Shown here one piece after another: positions 3,481 through 49,653 of a DNA stretch of 64,000 nt. The stretch's first letter is position 1. Each line of letters begins with the position of its first letter. The stretch spans positions 364,808,001 through 364,872,000 of the forward strand of contig OZ024743.1 in NCBI GenBank assembly GCA_964016885.1. Direction: 5' to 3'. The position numbers and the translations under genes were made by a program. The stretch is from Eledone cirrhosa (lineage: Eukaryota). A model generated the notes under the pieces. That model saw nothing but the letters and a program-made list of their open reading frames with translations. It searched no databases and was not told the DNA's origin.

Positions 3481-6364
3481 CTTACATCATAAGTATAAGT
3501 GAATAAGAATCAAAACTAAACTGAGACCCCCCACTCCCTATATTTATCATGATCCTTTTCATGGTCTCGGAGACTGGTGAGATAAAGAAGGAGAATTATC
3601 TTAATACTGGTGAACTAACCCGAATGTTTGCAACAAAGTATAATTCGTTAAAAGTATCATAAGCTAGATGATTGTTTTATACCAGGCTTCTAGTTAAGTC
3701 TGTTATGCACTTATTCCACGGTGTAATTATTTCCAATAACATAGATTCAGATGTATATATGGGGACATTTTATTATGTAATAGCTTCCAAGGTACCAATA
3801 TAGCGTGAGTTATGATTAAATAGACTCATTGATATCCATTAGTATTTAGTCTCGTCAAAATTCTAAAATCTTTAGAGCGTAGTTCAAAAGCATTTGTTGT
3901 GACTCTCTACGCTCTGAGTTCAAGTCCTTCTTTAATCAATTTTATCTCTTATCCTCTCGAGATCGATAAGATATAGTACGAGCCTAGAGAGGTGAAATTG
4001 TGGGAGCGTGAAACGAGATACCTGAGATATTTGTTCCGACATTTTAAGTGGTTGACTTAATCCGTCATGCAGTTTAACACTGTTATCTGCTCCTTGGGTA
4101 AATTTAGTTATATCTACTCTGTTGCAAGCATTTAGGTTAGACTTTATCTTTCTTTACATACTTCTTTACGTCCACAAATCTCGGAAGTCCTGAGAAAATA
4201 AAAATCATGAGCGCTTCCTTTCTTACTGTGACTAAACTGTAAAATATATATCTCACTGTGAAATTGGGTCCCACATATGGAAATCATTCTATATATTTGT
4301 TCATAACCATGGAGTGTTTGTTTACATTATGTGAATGAGCTATGTCTGAAATAATTTATGTAAACGTTTTAATAGACAGTCTTGCGTTACTTTATGTTTT
4401 GAGATGGAGATGTGAGCAAATGTCAATAGGTTGTTAAATAACTTGGAAACCATTCGGGTCAATCCTCATTCCAAGCTACCGAAAGGGGTAAAATCAGGAG
4501 TTTGAGGAGTCTGAAACACAAACATGGTAATTATATCCCAAAGAATTTGTAGATGTTAATGCGTGTAGTTCTGGTAAGGTAACGACAAATCTGACGCTTT
4601 CGATAAAGGTCCTTCGACGGAGTGCTGAAAAGGCCCTCGTGGGGCTTGATTTCACAGTAAAACAAAATACATCAGACTATGACTCCGTATATTTATTTAT
4701 TAAGTGATTGTGACAGAAAATTCTTTCAGCCAAGATTCGAACCGCGTTTACGCCCTAAAATTACCAGGAACGTCTATACAAGGGCTTTCGGTGCAGTGAA
4801 TCTAGACATAAGGGCGTAAGTAACTGTCTGAAATATATTATTTATTTTTTATATATATATATCTTCCTTTAAAAGGATGCTAATTTATTTTTGTTGCTTT
4901 TTTTCTAAATAATTTGTTTACTATTGTTTCCTGTTAAAGGTTAACTGTACTAAAGGTGTTTGCCAAGGGGTTAACTTTTGAGTTGACATGAAATTCCTAG
5001 CGCTACTCTTGTTTAAGTGTTAAAATCAGTTTAAGCTGAATAAGTAAATGCACTTGACAAGATACTTATTGACACCAGAGCAGATGTTAGAGGGAGAGAG
5101 GGCATCACTTCAGAATTATCACCGTTCCATGAACTATTTATGTAGGCTAAAAGGCTGAGAAATGTAATGCTGAAAAATAAAAATAATAAATATTAGGTTC
5201 CAACTATCTTTAGTATATATTTTTTCTCTTACCTTCTAATGTATAAAATAACATCGGTTTCGCAACATATCATAATGCCAAAGTGTTTTGCCCAATTGGT
5301 TTTCATTTGCCTTTTCTCTCCAGGTAGGGGCCTAACACATTTAAAAGAATGAAAATGAGGCAGTAGAGTTCATCCATCCGTCCGTTCTTCCATAGTCCCT
5401 GAATTCCTGAGATCGTTGTAAGGTTGTTCTAGTGACATACGAGGTGTCTAGGGCATTTAAACCTGACGGAGCTCATCCCTCTCCAAGGCTGAACATAGCC
5501 GATTACTTAAAGGGAAGGAGAGAGGGGTGTATGAAGAATTGATTCCAGAACTGCATTTAAACTTTATTTATCGGACTCGAATGGATGAAAGAGAAAGAGG
5601 ACCACAGATGAATTTCATTTCAAGGCACAGGGAGCCAGAACTAATACCGCAAAACGTTGCCCGACTCTCTAACGACACTGCCAATTTGCCACCAAAAGCT
5701 CTCTTTCTACTTCAAATGTCTACAAACGAGGGACCTGCATTAGTCTCTTTCAACAGAGCAAAGAGACATAGTGAGTTAGATATATATCTCAACTTTAGTA
5801 GTTATTATCAATACCGAAAATCAGTCGAAACTATTAAAGAGAGTAAATAACATGATTGATAATAACAGCCGGTCTCTTTCCTTGACCGACGCAAGGATTT
5901 CAATCACACAATACTATGTGCTTGTCTATCTGGAGTACACTGTAAATAGTCATTTAAAGAGTATTGTATAACTCCTCTTTTTCACCACCACAGTTCATCA
6001 TGGTACAGGCGTAAACACTGAACAAGGTAGCATAGCATCGTTTATTTTCCGACGGTAACTCTCAAACACATAATCTCGTTATTGATAATAGTTGGTTTTT
6101 AGTCTAATTTAGATTTGTTTATGACCAAAGCAATAGCAGACATGCACTTCGTCTCTGATGGTTTCCCACTCCAAAAGAATGTATCTTACCAGCTCCAATG
6201 GTACCAGTGTGCTACGCCTCTCTCCCCATTTTTCTCTTTTCTTTCTTTTGTGTCGTTTTAAAAGTTAAATAGATAAAATAAAGACTCAATTTCTTTCGAT
6301 GCTGTCCGACCGATATACATTCACTTGTTGACATTATGTTTAGTTCTATTTCTCCCGTAGTAGT

Positions 6365-6394
6365 GAGGATGATGATGATGATGATGATGATGAC

Positions 6395-6453
<59 letters not shown>

Positions 6454-6489
6454 CGATGATGACGGTGATGATGATGATGGTGGTGGTGG

Positions 6490-6525
<36 letters not shown>

Positions 6526-6531
6526 GGTTGG

Positions 6532-6571
<40 letters not shown>
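6365..6571. repeat. (GAT)n microsatellite
   Basis: direct inspection. Confidence 0.95.
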
Positions 6572-6572
<1 letters not shown>

Positions 6573-8140
6573 CCTTCCCCACCACCATCTTCCCCAACAC
6601 CATCTTCCCCATCACCATCTTACCCATCACCATCTTCCCCATCACCATCTTCCCCATCACCATCTTCTCCATCACCATCTTCTCCTTCACCACCTCTCCC
6701 ATCACCATCTTCCCCATCATCATCTTCCCCATCACCATCTTCTCCACCATCTTCTCCATCACCATCTTCCCCATCACCATCTTCCCCACCACCATCTTCC
6801 CCATCACCATCTTCCCCACCACCATCTTCCCCTTCACCATCTTCCCCATCACCATCTTCCCCACCACCATCTTCCCCTTCACCATCTTCCCCATCACCAT
6901 CTTCCCCACCACCATCTTCCCCATCACCATCTTCCCCACCACCATCTTCCCCATCACCATCTTCCCCACCACCATCTTCCCCATCACCATCTTCCCCATC
7001 ACCATCTTCCCCATCACCATCTTCCCCATCACCATCTTCTCCATCTTCCCCATCACCATCTTCCCCATCACCACCTTCCCCATCACCATCTTCCCCTTCA
7101 CCATCTTCCCCATCACCATCTTCTCCATCACCATCTTCCCCATCACCATCTTCCCTATCACCATCTTCCCCATCACCATCTTCCCCACCATCATCTTCCT
7201 CATCACCATCTTCCCCTTCACCATCTTCCCCATCACCATCTTCTCCATCACCATCTTCCCCATCACCATCTTCCCCATCACCATCTTCCCCATCACCATC
7301 TTCCCCATCACCATCTTCTCCATCTTCCCCATCACCATCTTCTCCATCACCATCTTCCCCATCACCATCTTCCCCATCACCATCTCCCCCATCACCATCT
7401 TCCCCACCATCATCTTCCCCATCACCATCTTCCCCTTCACCATCTTCCCCATCACCATCTTCTCCATCACCATCTTCCCCATCACCATCTTCCCCACCAC
7501 CATTTTCCCCACCACCATCTTCCCCATCACCATCTTCCCCACCACCATCTTCCCCATCACCATCTTCCCCATCACCATCTTCCCCATCACCATCTTCCCC
7601 ACCACCATTTTCCCCACCACCATCTTCCCCATCACCATCTTCCCCATCACCATCTTCCCCATCACCATCTCCCCCATCACCATCTTCTCCATCACCATCT
7701 TCCCCATCACCATCTTCCCCATCACCATCTTCCCCATCACCATCTTCCCCATCACCATCTTCTCCATCTTCCCCATCACCATCTTCTCCATCACCATCTT
7801 CCCCATCACCATCTTCCCCATCACCATCTCCCCCATCACCATCTTCCCCACCATCATCTTCCCCATCACCATCTTCCCCTTCACCATCTTCCCCATCACC
7901 ATCTTCTCCATCACCATCTTCCCCATCACCATCTTCCCTATCACCATCTTCCCCATCACCATCTTCCCCACCACCATCTTCCCCATCACCATCTTCCCCA
8001 TCACCATCTTCCCCATCACCATCTTCCCCACCACCATTTTCCCCACCACCATCTTCCCCATCACCATCTTCCCCATCACCATCTTCCCCATCACCATCTC
8101 CCCCATCACCATCTCCCCCATCACCATCTCCCCCATCACT
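6572..8140. repeat. 15-bp minisatellite (CCATCACCATCTTCC)n
   Basis: about 1.57 kb with SPSSP periodicity in translation; variant blocks are re-duplicated. Confidence 0.95.
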
Positions 8141-8250
8141 ATCACTAACATCACCTGTCTACCTATCATTTACCCCCATCAACACCACTACCAATACAAC
8201 TACGTTCTTGTTATATCCTTTCACATCCAGGCCATCTTAATGTTTCTTTC

Positions 8251-9589
8251 GTTCTATGGTTATTAAGTAGCATTTAGGTTAAAGTAGTTCGATGGCTATT
8301 AAGTAGCATATAGGTTAAAGTAGTTCGATGGCTATTAAGTAGCATATAGGTTAAAGTAGTTCGATGGCTATTAAGTAGCATATAGGTTAAAGTAGTTCGA
8401 TGGCTATTAAGTAGCATATAGGTTAAAGTAGTTCGATGGCTATTAAGTAGCATATAGGTTAAAATAGTTCGATGGCTATTAAGTAGCATATAGGTTAAAG
8501 TAGTTCGATGGCTATTAAGTAGCATATAGGTTAAAGTAGTTCGATGGCTATTAAGTAGCATATAGGTTAAAGTAGTTCGATGGCTATTAAGTAGCATATA
8601 GGTTAAAGTAGTTCGATGGCTATTAAGTAGCATATAGGTTAAAGTAGTTCGATGGCTATTAAGTAGCATATAGGTTAAAGTAGTTCGATGGCTATTAAGT
8701 AGCATATAGGTTAAAGTAGTTCGATGGCTATTAAGTAGCATATAGGTTAAAATAGTTCGATGGCTATTAAGTAGCATATAGGTTACAATAGTTCGATGGC
8801 TATTAAGTAGCATATAGGTTAAAGTAGTTAGATGGCTATTAAGTAGCATATAGGTTAAAGTAGTTCGATGGCTATTAAGTAGCATATAGGTTAAAGTAGT
8901 TCGATGGCTATTAAGTAGCATATAGGTTAAAATAGTTCGATGGCTATTAAGTAGCATATAGGTTAAAGTAGTTCGATGGCTATTAAGTAGCATATAGGTT
9001 AAAATAGTTCGATGGCTATTAAGTAGCATATAGGTTAAAATAGTTCAATGGCTATTAAGTAGCATATAGGTTTAAATAGTTCGATGGCTATTAAGTAGCA
9101 TATAGGTTAAAGTAGTTCGATGGCTATTAAGTAGCATATAGGTTAAAATAGTTCGATGGCTATTAAGTAGCATATAGGTTAAAATAGTTCAATGGCTATT
9201 AAGTAGCATATAGGTTAAAATAGTTCGATGGCTATTAAGTAGCATATAGGTTAAAGTAGTTCGATGGCTATTAAGTAGCATATAGGTTAAAATAGTTCGA
9301 TGGCTATTAAGTAGCATATAGGTTAAAGTAGTTCGATGGCTATTAAGTAGCATATAGGTTTAAATAGTTCGATGGCTATTAAGTAGCATATAGGTTAAAA
9401 TAGTTCGATGGCTATTAAGTAGCATATAGGTTAAAATAGTTCGATGGCTATTAAGTAGCATATAGGTTAAAATAGTTCGATGGCTATTAAGTAGCATATA
9501 GGTTAAAATAGTTCGATGGCTATTAAGTAGCATATAGGTTAAAATAGTTCGATGGCTATTAAGTAGCATATAGGTTAAAATAGTTCGAT
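8251..9589. repeat. 36-bp minisatellite, about 37 copies
   Basis: unit AAA(G/A)TAGTTCGATGGCTATTAAGTAGCATATAGGTT head-to-tail, no spacers. Confidence 0.95.
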
Positions 9590-10435: not shown

Positions 10436-10738
10436 CTTAAAACAGTAAAGGTTAAGACAGAAAAAAAGAAGAGAGTTGACGAAACGAAGAGAACAGAAAC
10501 AGAAGAAAGAAAGAAAAAGTGCATTAAAATAATGGAACAAAAGAGGAATAAATACGGAATAAAAGGCAAAAGAAAAGAAGGTTAGAATAAAAGAAATAGA
10601 TGGTGATAGATCTTCCTTTCGTTTCCATGTATATATCTACCTATCTTTCTATCTTTCTATATTTCTATTTATCTATTAAAGCTATTTTATCTATCTTATC
10701 TTTGTCTATTTATCTATTTACATACATACATACATACA

Positions 10739-11346
10739 TGGTGGCTGCCAACTCGTTTTCGAGTACGGCCACTACTTTATATCCATGTAGGAGAACCCCT
10801 ACCGATGCGCTGAACGAGTGTGACTTTTTAGTCCAGCCAGCGACTTGAAAACTCTGGTACAAACACTACACTTGTGACAATTATTGACACATAGTGCTGG
10901 GCCCATGGTACCATGTGACGACAAGTGCAGAGAGATCTCCAGATATAAAGCAATGCCTGTGCCGTGAAGCTTTTATAGTGAGCAAAGGCACTGCACAAAG
11001 CCAGTCCCACTCTCTTAACCAAGATGATATTTACCAAAAAGAAGAACAAGTCAACATCATTGGATACCATCAGGGTTGCAGGTGTTATATCAGAGTTTTC
11101 CTTCTCCTAGAATTCTGCCTTGACAAAGGCTAAGGGGTCATCTCTCCCGGTGATTTTGGATGGCCATTGACTCTTAAGAGCTCCTTTGCCCTTTGACAGG
11201 TTTTGTTTTTAGTCCTGCAGGATGTCCAAAGTCACCCTCCTCACCAAGAAACCTTGGTGGGGTTGCCAGTTTAGTCGCCAACGACCCGACCATGAGACAG
11301 GTTGTACTGGGATACATGTTACCAGTAGCACCAACTGGTGACCTGA
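10739..11346 (-). mobile_element. non-autonomous RTE derivative (5'UTR + last C2H2 finger + 3' end), subfamily B
   Basis: RTE-type 5'UTR motif CTAGGAGAAGGAAAACTCTGA; encodes HKCSVCTRVFKSLAGLKSHTRSAHR*, matching the LINE C-terminus; (TACA)n on both sides. Confidence 0.85.
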
Positions 11347-13151: not shown

Positions 13152-13214
13152 CAGATTTGCTTTATAAATAAATATTGACATACCCGGAAAAAAGACAACC
13201 TCAACGGTTGAAAT

Positions 13215-14950
13215 TCGCTGGATAGTCATACTATCAGGGTCCTTCATCATCTCCTCTGTGAGCTTCAGCCATCTGTGGACAGCTCTCACCACCAACCCAT
13301 GTTTTTCGTGGTCTTCCTCTACTGCGTCTTCCTTCCATTGGGATTTCTTGGCACTTCTTTACTCAACGGTCATCCTCCATGCGCATCACATAGCCATACC
13401 AACGCAGTCTTCTTTCCCGCACACCACAACTTATCCCTCTTATACACAGTTTCACACTCAACTCGTCTATGCTTGGTCATTCACGCATTGACATTGCACA
13501 TCCAACGGAGCATGCTTGCTTCAATTCTCTCCAGCTGTCGCATATCCTTCGCAGTTGCTGCCCATGTCTCACTACCATGCAGTATCGCGCATCTCACACA
13601 TGCATCATATAACCAACCTGTCGTACGCAGGGAGAAACCCTTCGTTGTCAACAGAGGAAGCAGCACCCTAAACTTCTTCCATTCTGTCCTTATTCCAAAT
13701 ACTATGGCCTCGGAGCTTCCTCCTCCCTTACTAATCGGATCACCTAGATATCGGAAGCTATCAACCACCTCTATAGATCCTACCTGCATTTGAAAATGTG
13801 CCTATCACTGACACTTCTACTATCAATTTTCTCTGAACATCTATTACATATGAAGTTTTCCCTTCCTGTTAGTTTGCCTGCTTTTCCACTACACCTCTTG
13901 TGTACCCAAGATCTGCATTGTGTACATTCTATAGAGTTTATGCCAACTCCGTTTCTACATATCGAACATAGCCATTTCCCTGATGGAATCAGAGTGTTGT
14001 CCTCTTTCCTACTTATCAACACTTCAGTCTTTGCTAGGTTCACTCTCTCAGTTCTCTTGATTCCAATTACGGAATTTATTCGCTAGCTTTCTACTGATTC
14101 TGCTATAAGTATCAGATCGTCAGCAGAGAGAAGTTCCCATGGCCAGCCAGTCATAAACTCCTGTTATGGCTTGGAGAACTATAAGGAATAAGAGTGGGCT
14201 GAGGACCGAACCTTGATGAACTCCTACTTGTTTCTAGAATTCCTCACTAAACTCCATTCCTACTCTCAGTTTACTGACAGCTCCTCGGTACATAACTTGC
14301 AATGTCCTCACAAGCCATTCCTCTACATCTAGTTTCCTTAAGAACCACCAGATGACAGATCGGGGTACTTTATCAAAGGCCTTCTCTAGGTCAACAAAAA
14401 CTAAATATAGTGGCTTAGTCTTCTCTGAGAACCTCTCTTGTAGTTGTCTCACTAAGGAGAGGGCTTCTGTTGTACTTTTCCCAGGCACAAAACCAAACTG
14501 CATCTCATCTAATTTGCTTTTCTCTAATTAATTATGCTGAACCAACAGAGGGACCACTCTCTCTTTCTGTCACTTTCATAACCTGATCCATCAGTTTTAT
14601 ACCCCTATAATTGCTCCTCTCCAAGGCATCCCCTTTACCTTTGTAACAATTAACAAGTATATTGCTGCACCAGTCTTTGGGTATGACTCCGCCATATATA
14701 ACTTAATTGACTCTGCGTGCAACCAGTTTAGTTCTTACTTCTCCTGATGCCTTCAGCAATTATCCCTGACGGTCCAGCGGCCTTACCACTTTTCATTTCC
14801 TTAATTGCCTCTTTGGTCCTATAGTCGTCAATCTCAATAGCTGGTCCCTCTGTTGGATCTGTTGGGGGTAGTTTCTCTCTCTCCCATTCTTTCTCAACAT
14901 TCATCAGTCTGTCGTAAAGACATTTTCCAGGCCTCCTTTTTCTGAGCATC
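13215..14950 (-). pseudogene. RTE-clade LINE RT fragment with PHD-like finger inside RT
   Basis: MKSGKAAGPSGI; QFGFVPGKSTT; FVDLEKAFDKVPR; CSIC..CTQCRSWVHKRC..CNRC; FRYLGD; LHGSETW; multiple frameshifts. Confidence 0.9.
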
Positions 14951-15663
14951 AATATAATATATATATGTGTGTGTGTGTGTGTATGGATAAATGTGTGTAC
15001 ATACGTGTTTATGTAAGGTTGTATGTGTATATATGTATGTGTGTGTGTGTGTGTCTGCTGTATTCCTAGTTCCAGTCCAGTAGACTGTGGTTGTGTTGGG
15101 CCACAGAATTACTGTTGCAACTGTTTTATACGCTTCTGTAGATGGTTTTGCTGAATGAAAGATTCTGACATAGCTGCCCATAAATGTTGTTTCCTTGGGT
15201 GTCGCTGACAGTATAATGCCCCGGTGTCTCTTAAATATATTTATATTCTCTTCATCTAGATCAGGCAGTTAATTTACAGAATTGTTCGGGCCTCGAATTA
15301 AGAATACACCGGCATTTGTTCCTACTTACCACGCTCTGATTTCAAATCCTATCGTAGTCAACTTTGTTTTTCATCCTTTAAAATACCAAAAATAACGCCA
15401 TGGTTCAGGATGGCACCACTACGATTTCATCATGAATAAAGGGCCATTTACTTTTATTATACCTCTATGATGGTAAGCTGTGGGCTTTTACACTCTAAGC
15501 TATTGCAGTATCTGGTCCTAACGGTAAATAATGAGACTGGGCACGTGATGTCTGGTTGGGAGATTGGTTTAGCTCTCAATGCCAAAGTTAGGTGCTAGTC
15601 CTTCGAAAATGTTACACACCACACACACAAAGACACACACACATATATATATATATATATAAA

Positions 15664-18115: not shown

Positions 18116-19648
18116 TTTGGGTACGTGTTTGTATTTAGGTATAAAACAGCTGAAATCAGCATTAAATATGATAGTGGGTGGTATAGTACATCGATTAACT
18201 TTCTAGCCAAATCTATTTTAAATTCTCATTTAGTAGTAGTAGTAGTAGTAGTAGTAGTAGGAACAGCAGCAGCACGAGTAGTGGTGGTGGAGGTGATGGT
18301 TCTTGTTTTTTTGCAGCAGCAGCAACAACCTCGTTTCCCAATCTATAAGACTGGTCTAAAAACACCACACCATATAAGGAAGAGGCCAGCGAAGCAACTA
18401 GAGTCCTTCGAAAAAGATGTGATGGATAAAAGGACCTCTTTGTTTTGTCCATTTAATGCATATTTTTTAATAATGTACTGCCAACGTATTGTTAACCAGA
18501 AAAAAGCAGTAAAAGATCCTTAACTGCAAATGGAGTTGTAGAAGTGCTGTCTTAACTAACGGTGAATCTTTCAAACCTGGCAGAGCTTATCTCTCTCCAA
18601 GATCAGAACACGGTCAATTTCTTCCAGTGATAGAGAGAGAAAGAGAGAGAGGGAGAGTGGAGGGTTACTTTATTTATTGGCCTCGAAAGGATAAAAGGCA
18701 AGGTTAATCTTGGAGAAATGTAAATTCAAGGCGCAGTGAACTGGAAAAATTATAGAGGCATTTTTAATCCGAAGTTCTAACGATTCTTCTCATTTGCCAC
18801 CTTGTTGTTAACCAGCCACAGGATAAACATTCAAACTCAACGGTTCCCAGTCTGAGGGCCGTGAGCTAAGTTCAAAATTTCAAGTACTTTATGAAAGGCC
18901 TAATATATACACACTATTGAACAAACATTTCTTTCTTTCGGTTGTTATTCTCGCTGTATAGGAATCTAGGGGTGGAATGATTGTAACGTGGGATCTGTGG
19001 GGAAATTCATTTAAATAGAAAAGGACTTTCGTCATAAAAATGTTTAGAATCACTGTTTTAACAGAATTATTTCTAATTATATTATATGACTATTTTCATA
19101 TGGTCACTATCTGGAAAATAGTTTCACCGTTTGTTTGTTTGTTTTTGTTTTTGGTTTTTGTTTTTCGTTATATTTTAAACTCCACACCAAAATAGATTGT
19201 CTTTCTTTTAGAGCAGATAGTAAATGACCTTCGAGTGTTTCACCAGTTCTTTATGTGCAGGAGCTTCTGAATCTGCCAGGGTTGATATAAATAATTCCAA
19301 CATTTAGCCATTCATACACATGGGTGTCAGAAATACAGCCTTTATATATTTCTGTGTTTTCAAATGAATGTTTTATTCTTTATGTTCTGAACTCTAAAAT
19401 CCGGGCAAGCTAAGTCTGTGACATTCTTTTTCCTAATAACTTTGATTACCAGTTGTACTTAATAGCTTGGGATATTAAACTTATTTGCCCTTTCTACGGG
19501 GTGATTCAATAGGCAATTCTGTGGTCTAGGAAATCTTTGCACGTGCATAATGTGCACACACATTTACACCCGCTCACTTACACACACACACATACACACG
19601 CACATACATACATACATACATACATACATACATACATACATACATACA

Positions 19649-20255
19649 TGGTTGCTGCCAATTCGTTTTCGAGTATGGCCACTACTTTATATCCATGTAG
19701 GAGAACCCCTACCGATGCGCTGAACGAGTGTGACTTTTTAGTCCAGCCAGCGACTTGAAAACTCTGGTACAAACACTACACTTGTGACAATTATTGACAC
19801 ATAGTGCTGGGCCCATGGTACCATGTGACGACAAGTGCAAAGAGATCTCCAGATATAAAGCAATGCCTGTGACGTGAAGCTTTTATAGTGAGCAAAGGCA
19901 CTGCACAAAGCCAGTCCCACTCTCTTAACCAAGATGATATTTACCAAAAAGAAGAACAAGTCAACATCATTGGATACCATCAGGGTTGCAGGTGTTATAT
20001 CAGAGTTTTCCTTCTCCTAGAATTCTGCCTTGACAAAGGCTAAGGCGTCATCTCTCCCGGTGATTTTGGATGGCCATTGACTCTTAAGAGCTCCTTTGCC
20101 CTTTGACAGGTTTTGTTTTTAGTCCTACAGGATGTCCAAAGTCACCCTCCTCACCAAGAAACCTTGCTGGGGTTGCCAGTTTACTCGGCAACGACCCGAC
20201 CATGAGACAGGTTGTACTGGCATACATGTTACCAGAAGCACAAAAGGTGACCTGA
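19649..20255 (-). mobile_element. non-autonomous RTE derivative, subfamily B, second copy
   Basis: near-identical to 10739-11346 with the same ends; (TACA)n on both sides. Confidence 0.85.
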
Positions 20256-21523: not shown

Positions 21524-21874
21524 GAATGTCAAGATAAAATGATAAAATAATCAATAAGGATAATATAAATGTAAAGGGTTGGAGTTGGATACCACTGGAA
21601 AATAGGTTAAATATTGTCAAATATACATCACTAGCAGTCCAACGAAATAACCAACGCCACATAAACTCTAAATACTTTGGAGAAAGTGTGTATTAATAAA
21701 TTTACTGGTCTATCACGTTAATTCTAAGATATTCATATCTTAGTGCATATGTTTGTATTGAAAGAATGAAAGTATTTATAGAACAAAAATATTCGATATT
21801 GAAACTATTTGCATATATTCTTCAGTTGTTGCACACATATACATTCGTACGTATGTGTAAAATGCATACATACA

Positions 21875-22420
21875 GGATGACTGCAACTCAATTTCGAATA
21901 ATGCCATCGCTTGATACATGAGCATCACGGACGCGGCTTTGTAGTCCTGCTAGAGACTTGCCTATGGCCAGCAATACCATGCATAATACATACATGATGG
22001 TTGCAAACTCTGCTAAGATTACTGGAATTACAGCCACACGAACCTGTAACATATCCTAAACAAGCAATGCCTGTGCTTTGAAAGTTTTTTAAGTGAAGAA
22101 AGGCCTTGCACTCGACCAATCCCGCTCTCTGAGCATCGAAAACACTACCCGAAAAGGAGAACTGGTCAACATCATCGGATGCTTCTGATGCCGCAGGGTT
22201 TTTTTTTTCAGAGTTTCCCTCTTTTAGAAAGGTGATCTGACAACAACTGGGGGCCTTTCACTACCAGGTAAAAAAAAATGTTTAATACTATTTGGATCGC
22301 CGTTGACTCTGCCGAGTTCCTCCACCCTTTGCTGGGTCTTGTATTTCATTCCACAGGGTGTCCACATTTCACCCTCCTCCCCAAGCAAGCTTCGTGGAGT
22401 TGCTGGTTTAGTCGCCGGGG

Positions 22421-22422
<2 letters not shown>
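21875..22422 (-). mobile_element. non-autonomous RTE derivative, diverged subfamily C
   Basis: 5'UTR homologous to 10739-11346; zinc-finger remnant KSLAGLQSRVRDAH; TACA flanks. Confidence 0.7.
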
Positions 22423-22451
<29 letters not shown>

Positions 22452-22550
22452 CATACATACATACATACATACATACATACATACATACATGATGATGGCT
22501 GCCCCCTCGTTATCGAGTATGGCCATTGCACGATGAGACAAAAAAAAATA

Positions 22551-22588
<38 letters not shown>

Positions 22589-22607
22589 AAAAGAAAATAA
22601 AAATTTA

Positions 22608-22666
<59 letters not shown>

Positions 22667-22857
22667 CATACACATATACACACACACACACACTCACACA
22701 CATATACACACACACATACATTAATAACAATAATAATAATAATAATCATAACAACAATAATAATAACGACAACAACAATAATAATATACATATACATATA
22801 TATATACACACACACGCACACACATAAGCATATCTACACACACACACACGATAGCAA

Positions 22858-25209
22858 CTAACAGCTCTGCGATCGAATGTGGCTTTTTAGCCCAGCCAAT
22901 GATCTAAAATCTCTTGCACAGAGTCGGCAACCAAAACATTCACTGGGAATAGTCGGCTGTGGTTGGAGTTCGTGTACTTTTGCATGTCGCTTGAGCCCTC
23001 CTGCTGATTTACATTCTCTACCACATGTTTGGCAAGCATGATGAGTAGCATCTCCAACAGCAGCCTGGTAGTCAACCAGTGGTCTTACTTTATGACTGCG
23101 AAGATGACTTTCGAGTCCAGCTTTGCTTAGGCAGAGTCTCGCACATACGCTGCATGTCAGCACCATAGGAGGACCCTCGCCGTCTGAAAGTGCAACAGCA
23201 ATGCCCTTCCTCACATCCCGCTTTACTTTCTCGTATGCGATTCGAGATGCCTCAAAGGCAACTTTTCCCTCATATACAGTCTTTCTCCATTTATTACGAT
23301 CAGCAGCAATATTCTCCCATGTATCAGCAGAGATGTTAGCGTCTTTTAGAGAGGCTTTCAAGGAATCCTTATACCTCTTTTTTGGTTTATGTGGCGGTCG
23401 TTTTCCTTTAACCAACTCTCCATAAAAGAGTTGTTTTGGTATTCTAGAATCCTTCATCCTGGCAAGGTGACCACTCCAACGGAGTCGTTGCTTAAGCACA
23501 AGAGCTTCTATACTGTCACACAGAGAGCTTTCCAAAATCTCGACATCACTGATGTGGTCCCTCCAGTGAACGCCATGGATCTGTCTGAGACACATCTGAT
23601 GGAAACGCTCCAATTGCTTAAGGTGGTGTCGATATGTGACCCAGGTCTCGCAGGCATAAAGAAGACAAGAGAGCACACATACCCTGTACACCTTTACCTT
23701 TGTACTCCTGCATATATCTCGCCGACCCCAGAGTCGCCTTTCTAGCTTTCCGAAAGCATCACTTGCTTTCCTAATCCTAAGTGAGATTTCACTGTCAAGG
23801 TTGCTGTATCGATTGACAGTGCTTCCCAGGTAGACAAACTGATCAACTACTACAAGTCGTTTGCCATACACATAGATGTTTGGTTCAGTGTACAGCTTAC
23901 CAGGGGCAGGTTGGTACATGACGACGGTTTTCTTGAGACTGACAGTCAAACCTAGGGCAGTGCAAGCGTCAAAAAATGTATTCAAAATGTGCTGTATATC
24001 ACTCTCTGTGTGCGCTACAAGATCGCAATCATCTGCATACAAGAGGTCTCTTATGATTGATGTAAATACGTTTGTCTTCGCAGCAAAGCGCCTGATGTTA
24101 AATATGCTGCCTGAGGTTCGATATCGGATGTAAACACCATGCTCGCAATTCCTGAATGCAATACAGAAAACCATTGCAAAGTATATGGCAAACAGGGTCG
24201 GTGCTGGAATATCCCCCTGTTTCACTCCATTTTTTACTGAGATAGACTCCGACATGTTACCCCCGACATTAACCCAAGCCTTCATGTCGTCATGGAAAGA
24301 CCTAACTAAAGCAAGGAACTTATCAGGGCAACCAAGTTTCTGGAGAACCTTCCATAATGCATCTCTGTTAACAGTATCGAAAGCTTTTGTCAGATCGACA
24401 AAAACCTGATACAGATCCAAGCCTTGTTCCATGCATTTTTCCTGGAGCTGTCTAGCTGAGAAGATCATATCAGTAGTGCCGCGTCCAGCACGAAAACCAG
24501 ATTGACTTTCAGGAAGAACACAATCTGCAATGTGTGTCAGCAGACGGTCCAGAAGCACCCTACATAAAACTTTCCCTACGACAGAAAGCAATGATATACC
24601 TCTGTAGTTCCCACAATCGTTCCTGTTACCCTTTCCCTTGTACAAGACCACCATTACTACATCTCTCCAGTCCTCAGGTACGGATTCATTAGCCCATATC
24701 CTGCCAAACAAAGAGTGAAGATGTTGCAGGAGTCTCTCACCACCATATTGTAGGAGCTCAGCATGTATGCCATCCATACCTGGAGATCTTCCACTGTTCA
24801 GCTTCGAAATAGCCACTGCAACCTCCACAAGCGTCGGAGGTTCTGCGAGAGCTACTTTCACAGGACTTTCTGGAATGAGATTGAGGAAATCTTCACTGAC
24901 GACAGACGGCTGATTCAAAAGATCATCAAAGTGCTCTCGCCACCTTCGTAGAATTCCTTGTGAGTCACGAAGAAGTTCTTTGCCATCCTTGCTGCGAAGC
25001 GGTGTCACCAGAGAAGAATACGGTCCATAAACCTCACGCAAGAGACTGTACAACAGCTTTGTGTTATTGGAATCAGACGCAGTTTGTATCTCACCAGCCT
25101 TCTCACTCCACCACTGATCCTTCATCTGAGAAAGACTCCGCCTAACACGTGATTTTACATCCCTGAGTTCCTCATGCAACGTATTCCTCTCCTGTGGTTT
25201 TGCCGTCAA
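22858..25209 (-). CDS. RTE LINE reverse transcriptase plus three C-terminal C2H2-type zinc fingers
   Basis: NYRGISLLS, QSGFRAGRGTTD, FVDLTKAFD, GVKQG, LLYADD, FVYLGS; CSVC..H, CQTC..H..H, CRLC..H. Confidence 0.95.
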   Translation of the reverse strand: MTAKPQERNTLHEELRDVKSRVRRSLSQMKDQWWSEKAGEIQTASDSNNTKLLYSLLREVYGPYSSLVTPLRSKDGKELLRDSQGILRRWREHFDDLLNQPSVVSEDFLNLIPESPVKVALAEPPTLVEVAVAISKLNSGRSPGMDGIHAELLQYGGERLLQHLHSLFGRIWANESVPEDWRDVVMVVLYKGKGNRNDCGNYRGISLLSVVGKVLCRVLLDRLLTHIADCVLPESQSGFRAGRGTTDMIFSARQLQEKCMEQGLDLYQVFVDLTKAFDTVNRDALWKVLQKLGCPDKFLALVRSFHDDMKAWVNVGGNMSESISVKNGVKQGDIPAPTLFAIYFAMVFCIAFRNCEHGVYIRYRTSGSIFNIRRFAAKTNVFTSIIRDLLYADDCDLVAHTESDIQHILNTFFDACTALGLTVSLKKTVVMYQPAPGKLYTEPNIYVYGKRLVVVDQFVYLGSTVNRYSNLDSEISLRIRKASDAFGKLERRLWGRRDICRSTKVKVYRVCVLSCLLYACETWVTYRHHLKQLERFHQMCLRQIHGVHWRDHISDVEILESSLCDSIEALVLKQRLRWSGHLARMKDSRIPKQLFYGELVKGKRPPHKPKKRYKDSLKASLKDANISADTWENIAADRNKWRKTVYEGKVAFEASRIAYEKVKRDVRKGIAVALSDGEGPPMVLTCSVCARLCLSKAGLESHLRSHKVRPLVDYQAAVGDATHHACQTCGRECKSAGGLKRHAKVHELQPQPTIPSECFGCRLCARDFRSLAGLKSHIRSQSC

Positions 25210-26393
25210 GTAGCACGCCTCTTATCAGCCAACAAGTCTTCTATATGTACATCATTCTCATCAAACCAGTCCTGATGTTTCCTCTGCGCCAATCCCAGAA
25301 CACGCCTGCCTACATCATAAACCGACTTTTTAAGGGTCGGCCAATCCTCACCAAGATCTGCAGCCTGCATCTCTTCTTCCAATGTCCTCTTCACATGTTT
25401 ATCCTTAAGACGAGCAGCATTCAATCTTTTGAGCAGGGCAACACCTGGAGCCCGGATTTTACGTTTAGTGATTAGTTTCACTTTTGCGCGTACCAGGCGG
25501 TGGTCCGTCCAGCACTCAGCTCCACGAAGAACACGAACACACTGCACATCCTGTCTGTCACGCATCCTGACTAGGACGTAGTCCAAAAGATGCCATTCCT
25601 TAGATGCAGGATGCATCCATGTGGTCTTGAATTTGTTCTTTTGTTGGAACATGGTGTTGGTAACACACAGATCCAGCTCCTCGCACATCTGCAGCAGGAG
25701 CATACCATTGCTGTTACACTTTCCCACCCCATGCCTTCCGATTACATTCCATGTGTTAAAATCCCTACCCACTCTAGCATTAAAGTCACCAAGCACGATG
25801 ACTTTGTCTGCCTGAGGGATATTTCTTAAAACACCTTTCAAGGCATGGTAAAAGGACACCTTTTCCTCATCGACAGAACTCATAGTTGGAGCATACACAC
25901 TCACCAGGGTAGCATATCTTCCCTTGTCCAGCGGAACTCTCATGGACATAAGACGCTCACTAATCCCTACTGGGAATTCTTCTAATTTGTTCACAAGCAC
26001 AGTCTTAACAGCAAATCCTACCCCAGCCTCTCTTCTGGTTCCTTCATCTCTTCCTTTCCAGAAGAATGTATATTCTCCACAAAATTCCGTAAGATGACCA
26101 TCTCCAGCTAGCCTCGTCTCAGATAAAGCGACGATGTCAAGATCGTAACGTCGAAGCTCCTTTGCAACAAGAGCGGTCCTTCGTTCAGGACGCCCCAAGG
26201 AATCCCTGTCAAGCAGCGTCCGTACGTTCCAGCAGCCAAGACTAAATGCCTTGTTTGGCTCTATTACAATGGCACGAGGACGAGCGGGCCCAGGCTGTGA
26301 TAACCTGGGGCCCCTGCCCTTATTGCCAATGATCTTTTTTGTTCCAGAACCTAAATTGCCAATTATCTCTTTTATATTGTTCTGGAACATCAT
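25206..26393 (-). CDS. RTE LINE apurinic endonuclease domain (N-terminal part of the same ORF; 1-nt frameshift near 25208)
   Basis: WNVRTL, ALSETR, GVGFAV, YAPT, LGDFNARVG, LDYVL, TDHRLV. Confidence 0.95.
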   Translation of the reverse strand: MMFQNNIKEIIGNLGSGTKKIIGNKGRGPRLSQPGPARPRAIVIEPNKAFSLGCWNVRTLLDRDSLGRPERRTALVAKELRRYDLDIVALSETRLAGDGHLTEFCGEYTFFWKGRDEGTRREAGVGFAVKTVLVNKLEEFPVGISERLMSMRVPLDKGRYATLVSVYAPTMSSVDEEKVSFYHALKGVLRNIPQADKVIVLGDFNARVGRDFNTWNVIGRHGVGKCNSNGMLLLQMCEELDLCVTNTMFQQKNKFKTTWMHPASKEWHLLDYVLVRMRDRQDVQCVRVLRGAECWTDHRLVRAKVKLITKRKIRAPGVALLKRLNAARLKDKHVKRTLEEEMQAADLGEDWPTLKKSVYDVGRRVLGLAQRKHQDWFDENDVHIEDLLADKRRAT

Positions 26394-26427
26394 TGAATTG
26401 GGGAAAAAAAAAAAAAAAGTAATAATA

Positions 26428-26458
<31 letters not shown>

Positions 26459-27146
26459 TAGTACACTATTAATAATTATTAATGCACTCGTGCAATGCCT
26501 GTGCGTGACGAATATTTTTAAAGTGAGGAAAGACTGTGCACTGAGCCAATCCCACTCTCTGAGCGATAGTAGCTATAACCCGAAAAGAAGAAAAGATCAA
26601 CATCATCGGTAACTACTGAGCCGCAGGTTTTATGTCGGAGTTAACCCAGTTTCCTGAGATGCCTTCTCCTAGAAGAATGCCCTGACAAGGGCTAGGGGTT
26701 CTTCACTCCCAGTGGTTTAACTGCGCGATCGGGCATCCAGCCCGATTATTTCTATGTCCCCGTGCAAAAAAAAAAAAAAAAAAAATCACTATTGACACTT
26801 ATACGTACGACATACACACACGCGCATACATATGCGCGCACACAGCAACACTCATACATACAAACAAACACACACACGCTACTCTACTCACTTACACACA
26901 CACACACATATATATATATATTACCGTCATTACTGATACAAGATTACAAGATTATGTCAACTGTTGACTTTCAAGAGTTTGTATAGTTGAAGCCGATCGT
27001 ACTACAGTCCAGTATTATTATAATTGCTTTACAGCATAGAGTCACGGCCCTCCACGCTCTGAGCTCAAATCCCGCCGAGGTCAACTTTGCCTTTCATCCC
27101 CACGGAGTCAACAAATACATACATACATACATACATACATACATAC

Positions 27147-27418
27147 ATGATGGCTGCCCCCTCGTTATCGAGTATGGCCATTGCACGACGTACCATTATT
27201 AACAATTATTAATTAATTCTATCGTGCAATGCCTGTGCGTAAAGATATTTTTTAAAGTGAGGAAAGACTGCACTGAGCCAATCCCACTCTCTGAGCGACA
27301 GTAACTATAACCCGAAAAGAAGCAAAGATCAACATCATTGGTAACTACTGAGCCGCAGGTTTTATATCGGAGTTATCCTAGTTTCCTGAGTTGCCTTCTC
27401 CTAGAAGAATGCCCTGAC
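27147..27418 (-). mobile_element. non-autonomous RTE derivative, subfamily A (5'UTR fused to 3' end)
   Basis: 27147-27188 matches 22492-22533 and 27190-27418 matches 26461-26688; in (TACA)n that interrupts a SINE at 27000-27115. Confidence 0.85.
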
Positions 27419-27582
27419 ATACATACATACATACATACATACATACATACATACATGCCCAGACATACATATATGCATGCATACATACATACATACATAC
27501 ATACATACATACATACATACATACATACATAGATACATACATACATACATACATACATACATACATACATACATAGATACAT

Positions 27583-30500
27583 AAAATGGCGACCGTTGTG
27601 GTCAGTGTCCGATAATCGGACGTGTGTAATTACGGCTTACATGAAGGCAACATACCATATATTGGAAAAAGTTGAGCTACATTACGCGGTAAGATTACAT
27701 ACAATAATTCTACATAAGTGTTTGAACTGTAAGTGTGTTGTAAAACACCTATTTATATGAACGATACATACACTTATGATATATGAACAATACATACACT
27801 TTAACATATAAATGCAACGTTGTTATATTACATTTATAAAGAAATATACAAGTAACGTTTTCGATTCAGAAACAAAAATATAAGTGTTTGAACTGTGAAT
27901 ATGTTGTGAATAGGTTGTAGAACACCTATTTATATGAATGATACATAAACTTTAACATATAAATACAGCGTTGTTATATTATATTACATTCATAAAGGAA
28001 TATACTAAGTAACGGTTCTTTTTGTTCTCGATTCAAACGATTCAAGAACAACGTTTAAAACACAGTTGTAGAATTAAAAACTAACTGAAAAGAAATATTA
28101 CCCAAGCTGTGAATAACTTTAAATTTGATTCTGACAGAACTTTGTCGTAACTTTTAAAGAAGATCATCGACTATTTTGAAAAATAAATACGAAATATTAG
28201 TGAATAGACGAACTCATCATGGCAAAAAGTACAAGTCTCCTTCGACCAAATCGCAATTACAACCGTTGTACACAGTGGAGCTACGAGCTTAACAAAGTAT
28301 TATATGAAGCATACAAACAATCTGAACCCCAAAAGTTCGGTTTTATGCAAAGGCTAAAAACTTTATGGAATTCCAAACACCCAGAATTAGACTTTTCTCC
28401 AAAGGATTTAAATGAACAGGCAAAACGTATCATTTGATGTAAATTGATACATCTAACGGAATTGAGTGATACTACAAATACAGCCCTTGTAGACAACCAC
28501 ACCACCTCCGCTGACAGACAAAGAGAATGGCCAGCTAAATCTAACAGTGAACAGCTCATCAACAATTTTGCTGAAATCCATCCCACTTCCACTGAAGAAC
28601 AGCGAGAAAGGTCAGCTGACTCTAGTAGTAATTGTCACCACATCAACAACGAGTCTGAAATGCATGACTCTACTGAACAAACAGAGCACCAAAAACTTGT
28701 GGACTCCCTACAAGTGATATGGAACGATATGTTTCAAGAGATACACAGCCTTAATGTGAGTGACAGACCATACAACACTAGAGTCAGTAAAGAACCCACT
28801 AAATTGGAATTGGAAGCGGTGAACGAAATAGCTGGCAGTTATCTGAAGGCTATACGATCTAAAGGTGTAGAAACGACATTTGAAACGCTTAATGTTTTGT
28901 TATATGTTTCAGCTGTCACATTGCTATCATATAACACACATCTAAAACCACGCAATCAAGATACAAGCAGAAAGCCTGAACCAGCGTGGATGCGAAATTT
29001 AAAATCCAAAATTTTGTCCCTGAGACGATGTATCTCACACATCGCAGTCGTTATGAAATGCAACATAGAGAGCAACTTCACACGACACCAGGAAGACCTA
29101 AAGAAAAAGTTAGAGAGACGATTTGGAGATACAAAATTTAAAACTTTGAACTCCAAATTACACTAGTTGAAACAACAACTCACAGCTACAACAGAAAGAC
29201 TGAAATATAAGTCAACAGCACATAAACGACAAGTGCTAAATAGATTGTTTGCCAGAGATCCTAAATCAGTTTATCGCAGCTTCGGTGGCAAAAGCTCAAT
29301 CTCTGTAAATGACACCCCTTCAAAAGAACAGGTTGAGAGCTACTGGAGATCTGTATGGGAAACGGATGACGGATTCAACAGACAAGCTAATTGGCTAAAA
29401 GAACTGGAACAGGACTACTGCCAACATGTCCAGACAAAACAATATGACATAGATGGGTCAATACTGGAAACAGCTCTACAGAAAATGTCGAATAGGAAAT
29501 CGCCAGGCCCAGACCTCATTACAGGATACTGGTTGAAGAATTTCACTTTCTATCGGCAAGATCTCATACGGCTGTTTACAGAAACCATTAAGGGCACACA
29601 AGAACTGCCCAGATGGTTATCAACTGCCTCTACTCTCCTCATTCCCAAAAATAGCCAAACCACCCTTGCTAAAAATTACCGCCCAATAGCCTGCCAAAAC
29701 ATCATGTATAAATTATATACTGGGTGCCTTAACCTGTTCTTACAGGATCACTGTGCTACCAACAACATCATAACACCTGAGCAAGCTGGTGGAAAGAGGG
29801 AGGTGTGGGGTTGCATAGATCACCTACTAACTAACAAAATGATTCAGGAAAAAACAACAAAGAATCGCAGAAACATGACTGTCGTGTGGCTGGACTATCA
29901 AAAAGCATTTGATAGTGTACCTCATGGGTGGATTGTTAAGGCTTTACAGTTAGCTAAAGTCCCACAACCATTGGTAGCTGCTGTTGAACGCCTGACCAAG
30001 AACTGGTACACCAGTTTGATCCTTAGAGGTGAGAAGGAGCAGGTTAAGACTGATAAGATACATTACCAGAAGGGCATCTTTCAGGGTGATAGCTTGTCAG
30101 TACTACTCTTCGTTCTCTCACTGAATCCACTATCTTACCTACTCAGGAAACAAGGTGGACAAAGAAGTGGGCCCAGAAGTATCTCCCATCTTTTCTTTGT
30201 TGATGACCTGAAGTTGTATGGGCCAAATATCAATGACATCAAGAAACAATTGGACCTCATTACACAATTTTCAACCGACATCAAAATGAAATTTGGTGAG
30301 TCCAAGTGTGCATATTTGGAAGTAAAACGTGGAAGAGCTGTGCCCACGTCTAGAAATCTAGAGATGAACGGCCTGACAATACAACCTCTGCAGTCAGGTG
30401 ACAACTACAGATATCTTGGACAGGATGAGAATGTCAGATATGATGGACCCATAAATAAGGAGAGAACCAGAACTGAATACCTCAGAAGAGTAAAGAAAAT

Positions 30501-31808
30501 ATGGTCATCAGAACTGTCAGCATACAACAAATACATTGCCCACAATACTTATGCTGTGCCAATTCTAACGCCAACATTTGGCCTACTGAACTGGTCATTG
30601 CAAGAACTAAGTGAGATGGATGTTAGAACTCGAAAACTTCTCAGTGTTACTGGCAACTTTAACATCAATGGTGATGTGGATAGGCTATACTTCTCACGCA
30701 AGGAAGGTGGCCGGGGTCTAAAATCAATATTAACAACATATGAGACCCGGATAGTAACACTGAAGCAACACCTTCAACAGAGGAAAAAGGTTGGCAACCA
30801 TCTTGCCCAGGTTTATGACCATGAAAAAAGAAATATCATTAGAATAGCGACTGATCTGGAGGAGAGATATGGAATAAAGCCTGATATAAATCTCTCACCC
30901 AGAGAAATCGGAAGATCCTATTCAATATTCAAACAAGATAAAAAAATTGACCAATTTACAGAAAAAGTTGTGCATGGATACTTGAGGCGTAAAACACAGA
31001 CCATAGAGGGGATAAACCACTCAAAAAGCCTGGCATGGAGTTCCGACAAGTTTATGACATCACACCTTGAGGGATATCTCTATGCAATACAGGAACAAGA
31101 ACTCCCTACCAAATATCTACTGCACAAAAGAGGAGGGCCAGCAGCTGACAATAAATGTAGGCTATGTAAAACAAAGATCGAGGATGTAAGCCACATTGTT
31201 GCCAGCTGCGAAAGAATGTCATCTCGCTACTACCTCCCATGAGATACGATGGGATAGCTAGAACCATCTGGAATGCACTTCGGAAAACAAAATTAACAAC
31301 AAACGAGGAAGAATATATTGAGACAGATGGCACTAAGGAATACTGGTGGAACCTGAAAATAAAAACTGCCACCAAATTAAAGCACAACCGGCCTGATATT
31401 GTAGTTTGGGACCACACATTGAAAACGTGTTCTGTTGTGGAGATCAGCTGCCCACTTGATGTAAACGTTGTCAGAAAAATACAGGAGAAGGAGGACATCT
31501 ACGGACCATTGATGAGGAGTTTACAAATCCAGTATCCAAGATACACCTTTAGCTTCATACCCATCATTATTGGTGCTACGGGTTATATAGCAACCCGCTT
31601 GGATCAAAGTATGACTGAACTTGGATTTGCGGACAAAAAGCGCAGCTCCCTAATTCATAGTCTACAAATGGCTGCGATAGCTGGCACCTTCAAAATTTGC
31701 AAAACATTCTTGCGATTCAAGGGATGACAATTTCTTTTCTTTTACAACCTTGCCACCAGGAAGGTGGCCGGTCAAAAAAATATACTCGAAATTAAGAGAA
31801 AGAGAAAA
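27583..31808 (+). mobile_element. full-length R4/Dong-type non-LTR retrotransposon in (TACA)n
   Basis: long ORF with RT and restriction-like endonuclease; (TACA)n at both ends; about 165-bp duplication in the 5'UTR. Confidence 0.85.
28219..31727 (+). pseudogene. R4/Dong-type RT - CCHC - PD(D/E)xK endonuclease polyprotein
   Basis: KSPGPD, NYRPIAC, WLDYQKAFDSVPH, GIFQGDSLS, FVDDLK, CRLC..H....C, RPDIVV..VEISCP; frameshifts near 28400 and 31240, TAG at 29164. Confidence 0.9.
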
Positions 31809-31863: not shown

Positions 31864-32310
31864 AGAAAAGAAGGGGATACATACATACAGACCTTTAATG
31901 AGCAATTTGGAAATCCAGACCCAAGAAGCACGTTCAGTTTCATACTTATTATTATCGGAAATACATGTTATATACCAACCTACCTGGACCATAGTATAAC
32001 TGAACTTGAATTTAAGGAGAAAGAACGTAGCTTCTTAATTCATAAGCTACAAATGGCTGCGATATCTGGAATCTTGATCAAGTGATGCATGTGCTTGAAG
32101 CTTTTTTAGGTGAAGAAACGCCTTGCACCGGACTAATCCCACTCTCTGAACAACAATAACAGGTATCCAAAAGAAAGGAATATGTCAACATCATTGGCTG
32201 CCATTGTGTAGCAGGTTTTACATCATACTTTTCTTTCTCTTTGAATGATAACCTAACAAGAACTAGTGGTATCTCACTCACGGTGGGCTAACCGCGCGCT
32301 AGGGCACCAA
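31864..32310. mobile_element. degenerate R4-type 3' fragment (+, 31864-32080) abutting an RTE 5'UTR fragment (-, 32081-32310)
   Basis: TFSFILIIIG..LQMAAISG matches 31540-31690; AATCCCACTCTCTGA..GTCAACATCATTGG matches the RTE UTR. Confidence 0.65.
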
Positions 32311-49344: not shown

Positions 49345-49650
49345 ATACAAGTTAATATAAATTAATATATGATAAACACACAAGTGTTTGTATTGTAAAA
49401 GACGAAGTTAGCTAGAATGAAATAAACTAATTCAAATAAATATAGTTTGCCTGTCTCGATTTAAAATAATAAATCAATAAAAACAAACCCACGGTTATTG
49501 CCAATATGGGTTTGTTTTTATTGATTTATTATTTTAAATCGAGACAGGCAAACTATATTTATTTGAATTAGTTTATTTCATTCTAGCTAACTTCGTCTTT
49601 TACAATACAAACACTTGTGTGTTTATCATATATTAATTTATATTAACTTG

Positions 49651-49653
<3 letters not shown>
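49345..49653. repeat. 147-bp-arm perfect inverted repeat
   Basis: 49345-49491 is the reverse complement of 49507-49653; ends at (TA)n. Confidence 0.95.

Follow-up and report, generated by a model that had tools for sequence, protein, structure and literature searches.

Covarying complementarity of 5′ UTR and 3′ end in RTE-clade LINEs and its retention in amplified short copies

RTE-clade LINEs carry two short arms, one in the 5′ untranslated region (UTR) and one near the 3′ terminus, that sit at fixed positions, are complementary to each other, covary and are both retained in amplified short copies. Sequence comparison indicates that this end-to-end complementarity is real, spans some 3.5 to 4 kb and extends beyond the genome in which it was noticed to RTE elements that include cattle BovB. 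A predicted H-type pseudoknot lies directly 5′ of the 5′ arm and a terminal stem-loop directly 3′ of the 3′ arm, and the interpretation toward which we lean is that pseudoknot, helix and 3′ hairpin form one element recognized by the reverse transcriptase (RT). The predicted pseudoknot and the clade-wide reach go beyond the original prediction, which had proposed a selected long-range helix.

An RTE element and its relatives in the window

The window is a 64,000-nucleotide stretch of Eledone cirrhosa contig OZ024743.1, to which all coordinates refer. It contains a full-length family-A LINE with an (ATGT)n tail (22421 to 27115, minus strand), and most of 20 long family-A copies start at the same position, near 27115. 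The ORF (22858 to 26393, minus strand) encodes an endonuclease (PF03372), an RT (PF00078) and three C2H2 fingers and has a frame break near 25206-25221 in this copy. A single ORF with AP endonuclease and RT, together with a microsatellite 3′ tail and no poly(A), places family A in the RTE clade; its conserved 5′ domain and tails resemble by eye those of named RTEs in the supplement entries of PMC5786205 that were compared, and the RT tree held no named reference. RTE-2_OV from Octopus vulgaris is described as having a C2H2 finger, a 5′ UTR of about 600 nt and a microsatellite-rich 3′ UTR (PMC9115989), a likeness to family A in description, and the portion of that text covered describes no RNA structure.

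The extreme 5′ end of the family-A element is an antisense piece of an abundant, unrelated SINE-like repeat (27040 to 27115, plus strand; 102 matches in 950 kb of random genome), and the family-A short form begins about 350 nt inward of it. Further in, a long hairpin is predicted at 26558 to 26625 (minus strand), with stems that vary by family around a conserved ATGATGTTGA...TTTT internal-loop region in families A to E and without an Rfam match; it folds in families A to D, has a predicted analog in F and is weak in a decayed E copy. Stem 1 of the predicted pseudoknot spans 26520 to 26560, with the loop GTGC at 26538-26541, and the GCAC of the anchor GCACAGG (26498 to 26504) is the predicted partner of that loop in stem 2. 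The 5′ arm follows at 26488 to 26497 and pairs with the 3′ arm at 22524 to 22533. The terminal stem-loop (22495 to 22526) consists of a CTCG/CGAG hairpin (22506-22517) on a basal stem ATGGC/GCCAT; all of these features lie on the minus strand.

The last three bases of the 3′ arm are contested by the basal stem, which covaries in family B (A-U to G-C). The distance from arm end to tail is 22 to 40 nt, and all families have a terminal hairpin and a repeat tail. The conserved CTCG-N4-CGAG hairpin that had been described after the helix held for families A, B and D; the hairpins of C and E are variants of it, and that of F is of another kind. The 5′ arm had also been placed at the end of the 5′ UTR, a position that did not hold, as 95 nt separate the arm from the ATG in family A, and in foreign elements it is a few hundred nucleotides upstream of the endonuclease match.

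Several shorter relatives lie in the window, all on the minus strand. The four motif pairs named in the original prediction are all present where they had been placed. Besides the full-length pair, the family-A short copy at 27117 to 27420 has correctly paired arms (27222-27231 with 27179-27188), and its 3′ piece starts at the 3′-arm edge. The family-B short copy at 10725 to 11345 also pairs as proposed, and its helix is longer than had been described, at 16 bp (10940-10955 with 10770-10785); a second family-B short copy (19640 to 20254) is 97.5% identical to it. The remaining pair proved to be a chimera, with a 5′ arm (22061-22069) from a family-C short copy and a 3′ arm (21905-21913) from the neighboring family-D copy. 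That family-C copy (21995 to 22420; 5′ arm 22055-22069) carries a separate hairpin and tail (about 21995-22020), its own 3′ arm is deleted, and the deletion junction is single-copy in the genome. The family-D copy (21870 to 21985; 3′ arm 21905-21916) is 5′ truncated, and a family-E 5′ piece (32077 to 32270) has the 5′ arm without the 3′ part.

The A short, A full-length, C and D copies follow one another in head-to-tail order between 21870 and 27420, set in one another's (ATGT)n tails. The same tail nesting is seen at 10725-11345 and 19640-20254, and family-B arrays occur at three further loci (L382 to L384). Such nesting suggests a target preference for the elements' own tail repeat. The window also contains a near-complete LINE of another clade with RT and zf-RVT domains (28438-31727, plus strand), alongside which lies the E-type piece at 32077-32270; decayed RT-bearing LINE fragments only about 30 to 47% like family A (13168-15268, minus strand); a tandem array of about 100 15-bp units adjoining a 36-bp array (6282-8266 and 8274-9044); and near-perfect long inverted repeats with spacers of 4 to 15 nt (264-659 and 49345-49653).

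Covariation of the arms and of the predicted pseudoknot

Families were defined in the 3.0-Gb genome by searches with the 5′ cores that precede the arm and by sampling 950 kb of evenly spaced genome stretches. Six families resulted, with 19 complete copies of A, 80 of B, 32 of C, 4 of D and 8 of E. The majority arms are CATTGCACGAT/ATCGTGCAATG in family A; in B, each pair of the 16-bp helix, four of them G.U, is present in 76 to 80 of the 80 copies. The true partners in the two families joined in the chimera are CATTGCTTGTTCAGG with (C/T)CTGACAAGCGATT in C, forming 13 bp with one bulge and a terminal C.U, and CATCGCTTGATA with TATCAAGCGATG in D. Family E pairs CATCACTTGATCT with AGATCAAGTGATG, and family F pairs TCTTCTTTA with TAAAGAAGA; the F arms are unrelated to those of the other families yet complementary to each other, and both are found, 3.0 to 3.5 kb apart, in four of five fetched near-full-length copies. 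The claim that every non-Watson-Crick position is G.U was not borne out, given the terminal C.U of family C (25 of 32 copies) and its bulge, an A.G at pair 5 in four of the eight E copies and a U.U in F.

Covariation was tested on 13 chosen copies from families A to E, aligned by sequence only. In this alignment 94.5% of cells were paired, compared with 27 to 46% in slid-register controls, and two-sided changes occurred at 6 of 12 pairs. The covariation score was reached in none of 500 shuffles, which ignore relatedness, and unguided RNAalifold recovered eight helix pairs. The majority helices of the six families contain eight G.U pairs (plus one split column) and no A.C, and in family B both shared arm variants become G.U. 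Whole-sequence folding was uninformative (z-scores of −0.38 for A short, −2.38 for B and −1.22 for F). The covariation on which the predicted selected helix depended was thus found, and the 5′ and 3′ sequences, being complementary and covarying, have the features of a candidate RNA cyclization element of the Ty1 CYC type.

Full-length elements from other organisms were collected by protein search and an alignment-driven scan. This gave 85 foreign loci, and the 5′ domain and the 3′ end were both present in only 12; five loci that passed the length filter (L178, L183, L198, L229 and L243) lacked a recognizable 5′ domain and were dropped. Viral contigs yielded no relatives, and none of five genome-contig loci had both ends usable. 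RTE-like sequence also appeared in contigs filed as bacterial genomes (L241 to L245), probably as eukaryotic contamination. The 12 foreign elements are 42 to 50% identical to the window RT, are spread over all branches of the RT tree and form, with two elements from this genome, a test set of 14. The 5′ search interval begins after a CAGG/CAAG-type motif and the 3′ interval lies 20 to 55 nt before the tail; both were set by eye, and the foreign anchors, though placed on the pseudoknot motif and the tail, were chosen with the pairing already seen.

Cognate arms in the 14 elements had a longest Watson-Crick run of 7.8, compared with 4.4 for non-cognate arms, and a duplex energy of −17.8 compared with −8.8 kcal/mol, neither of which was matched in 20,000 permutations. 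When family F was left out, the cognate advantage of the remaining 13 was matched in none of 200,000. All 17 shifted interval pairs were null (the lowest at 832 of 20,000), and composition is therefore not the cause of the cognate excess. Scans within each element gave a combined P of 5e-11. The helix was rejected as a unique best site within 4 kb, because the best duplex within an element was the cognate site in only 3 of 13, and in four elements (L161, L164, L166 and L180) the Watson-Crick runs were as short as 4 to 6. Together, the slid and shifted controls and the permutation tests place the complementarity beyond chance, as had been proposed.

The strand argument fared differently. G.U pairs on the sense strand had been offered as a sign of selection on RNA, and the absence of A.C is true only of the six short families; in the 14 full-length elements there is no such bias (16 G.U against 24 A.C beside the helix) and antisense duplexes are equally stable, so strand asymmetry was abandoned as proof of RNA-level selection. 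As a separate observation, the second-last G of the anchor (GG at 26498-26499) faces, in most elements, a C two bases past the 3′ arm (base 22522 in the window) and adjoins a G.G, G.U or G.A pair, which may be a junction motif.

In the predicted pseudoknot, the anchor motif is the complement of a hairpin loop, with an A-rich linker between them in most elements. Loop and partner are invariant within families A to E and change together across elements, as GTGC/GCAC, TGCGC/GCGCA, TGCAC/GTGCA, TGTAC/GTACA and TGGGC/GCCCA, the foreign elements included. The Watson-Crick covariation was equaled in 92 of 100,000 permutations and, with G.U included, in 1,270 of 100,000; the signal was weak in three elements (L166, L172 and L180). 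This loop, complementary to a downstream strand and covarying with it, is consistent with an H-type pseudoknot. Rfam scans returned only microsatellite noise below gathering scores and, in 15 elements, nothing, with no match to known self-cleaving ribozyme families. A search for a solved RTE structure found none, the nearest being those of L1 and R2.

Published elements, inspected by eye and unscored in part of the PMC5786205 supplement, show the same arrangement. BovB 769-824 and 3769-3835 give a predicted 10-bp helix, in which BOVA2 has G-C in place of one A-U as a compensatory change; another such change, A-U to U-A, distinguishes RTE-3_AMi (11 bp) from RTE-1_PSi (10 bp). Arms are also visible in RTE1_LA, WALLSI, SINE2_Gav, AFROSINE3, MonoRep87A/B and CoeSINE4/5, and the BovB-type sequences inspected have a matching pseudoknot loop and partner. 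SINEs headed by tRNA or 5S sequence, separately promoted and without an ORF, include an internal 5′-UTR piece that ends at the arm.

Deletion and amplification of short copies

Short copies of families A and F, mapped on full-length copies, are bipartite non-autonomous RTEs that join a 5′-UTR piece to the 3′ end, with the ORF interior gone. Full-length parents of B, D and E were not recovered; zinc-finger remnants were seen. Two copies of a zinc-finger 3′ fragment from the family-C parent precede an E copy at L104:900-1400 and L120:900-1400. Both follow the same, presumably transposase-like sequence, perhaps reflecting carriage by a DNA transposon. In A short and C copies the start of the 3′ piece is no more than about 2 nt from the arm edge; a further 100 to 150 nt are retained in B, D, E and the main F form.

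The short copies were amplified as units of uniform structure, with 24,690 exact B tails and 4,963 exact A tails in the genome. Among copies selected by their tails, the 3′ arm was kept in all 30 A and all 30 B copies examined. Both arms were present in 28 of these B copies, the other two being 5′ truncated, and the A copies comprised 13 of the short type and 17 LINE ends; no family with a foreign head appeared in these two samples. Thirty family-F copies selected by their core included 23 short copies with a tail, two without a tail and five long copies. The 23 showed about 14 distinct junctions, all inside the arms, one of which clips about 2 nt.

Deletions had been expected to fall solely inside the helix, and they do not. 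Shortened A copies numbered 209, and among the first 100 listed about 30, judged by eye, miss three or more arm bases. Their junctions are mostly separate, the largest shared one occurring in about six copies on different backgrounds. Ten of 32 matches examined were B-type and four of those lacked an arm, compared with the 24,690 exact B tails, and the 3′ arm is missing from 3 of about 33 C copies in which core and tail are both present. Arm-damaged copies are thus scattered and mostly single, the amplified short copies retain both arms, and no amplified derivative missing an arm was found in this genome, in keeping with the original prediction. Since arms are lost and yet are held by the copies that amplified, deletion ignores the helix and amplification seems to require it. 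We conclude that deletions unbounded by the helix are indicative of selection, with the helix filtering what amplifies and not what is deleted.

Proposed template recognition and its alternatives

In the mechanism we propose, the arm that follows the 5′-UTR pseudoknot would pair in the RNA with the arm that precedes the terminal stem-loop, and the resulting two-part structure would be recognized by the element's RT, upon which target-primed reverse transcription would start. The helix would form in vivo across 3.5 to 4 kb, probably with help from protein because the cognate site is rarely the strongest. Pseudoknot, helix and hairpin would stack about 25 nt from the tail, RT would bind at their joint, and RNAs missing either end would be poor templates. 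Internal deletions would arise frequently and anywhere, and only those retaining both arms would amplify; a need for both arms would allow bipartite SINEs to arise and keep 5′-truncated copies from spreading. We regard it as an even call whether, throughout the RTE clade and in BovB as well, one part of the RT-binding element lies in the 5′ UTR and the other at the 3′ end, the two being assembled only by the long-range helix and the RNA circularized for priming. If so, circularization would act as a check for a full-length template and account for the bipartite SINEs.

The helix might instead serve translation or RNA stability, by closing a non-polyadenylated RNA into a loop or by switching it between translation and packaging, and short copies would then retain it since ribosome association or stability raises their odds of meeting a new RT. 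The place of the arm, 95 to a few hundred nucleotides before the ORF and after the predicted pseudoknot, would suit such a role, as would the ability of the last three 3′-arm bases to switch between the long-range and the local stem. We nevertheless consider this account unlikely, because non-coding, separately promoted SINEs retain the exact unit, with an interior of only 2 to 4 nt between the arms in SINE-1_Pmo and EbuSINE2 (by eye, in the part of the PMC5786205 supplement inspected). Arm retention in such SINEs speaks for template recognition and against a role as promoter or coding sequence.

A role late in integration, in which the helix tethers the 5′ region to the RT complex and cDNA synthesis jumps to it or finishes there, would favor full-length insertion and generate internal deletions by template jumps. 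Internal deletions are indeed common, being found in at least 6 of 20 long A copies and at the many junctions of the short F copies. As a rule, however, junctions lie away from the arms, and in many single copies they cut across an arm; many fit deletion after insertion at microhomologies, and 5′-truncated LINE ends are common in the tail-selected samples, so that late tethering appears improbable. Finally, a DNA-level or mutational by-product, an inverted repeat without RNA function kept by fold-back copying or promoting deletion, would fit the lack of strand asymmetry in the 14 full-length elements and is very hard to credit for arms of about 10 bp that lie 3.5 to 4 kb apart, contain wobbles, bulges and loops, keep fixed distances from two other predicted RNA structures and favor G.U to the exclusion of A.C in the majority helices.

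Recognition by the RT, the reading favored here, has precedents in part. Bipartite RTE SINEs and the 3′ hairpin are already known (PMC5786205, PMC6007223, PMC7245038 and PMC3747384, as far as covered). The bipartite SINEs and non-autonomous LINEs Bov-A, WALLSI, AfroSINE and CoeSINE (PMC5786205) resemble the A short and B to F copies in joining a 5′-UTR piece to an RTE 3′ end, and the covered text of that paper (Kojima 2018) describes no 5′-3′ pairing or pseudoknot and notes that few LINE groups yield bipartite derivatives "for unknown reasons". Counting against a two-arm reading, the plant Au and TS SINEs are described in the parts of PMC6007223 and PMC3747384 covered as sharing only the 3′ end with RTE. 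Stringent recognition of the 3′ stem-loop by LINE RT is established (PMC3747384 and PMC12503042, in the sections covered). In UnaL2, R2 and the RTE 3′ hairpin as covered in PMC6007223, the stem-loop or pseudoknot is local to the 3′ end, whereas here a strand supplied by the 5′ UTR would complete the terminal structure.

By analogy, the helix would work like CYC5/CYC3 cyclization in Ty1, where long-range 5′-3′ pairing is likewise found and a 5′ pseudoknot matters for reverse transcription (PMC7969010, covered in part). Ty1, however, belongs to the LTR elements, is primed by tRNA and undergoes strand transfer inside particles; the RTE elements are non-LTR, their helix is predicted from sequence, and their 3′ arm abuts a terminal stem-loop. 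HDV-like ribozymes in RTE 5′ regions (covered portion of PMC6765202) share the clade and a pseudoknotted 5′ structure, whereas the fold predicted here is a simple H-type knot deep in the UTR, retained inside SINEs and without an Rfam match. A description of the helix or pseudoknot was not found in the literature searched, and the corresponding terms were absent from the portions covered of PMC13295347, PMC13708176, PMC4324840, PMC12503042 and PMC6765202; subscription papers, patents and further supplements may hold prior notice.

A helix that likely closes an RNA loop recognized by RT would explain the short parasitic copies that retain both ends. The question of why bipartite SINEs arise from RTE elements but not from most LINEs becomes approachable by compensatory mutation of the covarying helix. 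Template recognition by LINEs is usually seen as a matter of the 3′ end, and a conserved two-ended element would alter that view for a widespread clade. RTE-1_MD has served for RNA-based gene insertion, the two UTRs flanking the templates and having been improved by screening (PMC13708176, section 5.2, as covered). For such templates the helix predicts which UTR bases matter and that mixed UTR pairs would fail, and a split RT-binding element, if true, would be a design rule for RTE-based gene writing. In annotation, helix and tail serve to identify the "unknown 3′ ends" of MonoRep87A/B, which by eye, in the published sequences inspected, close the helix and match the tail of one foreign locus (L165).
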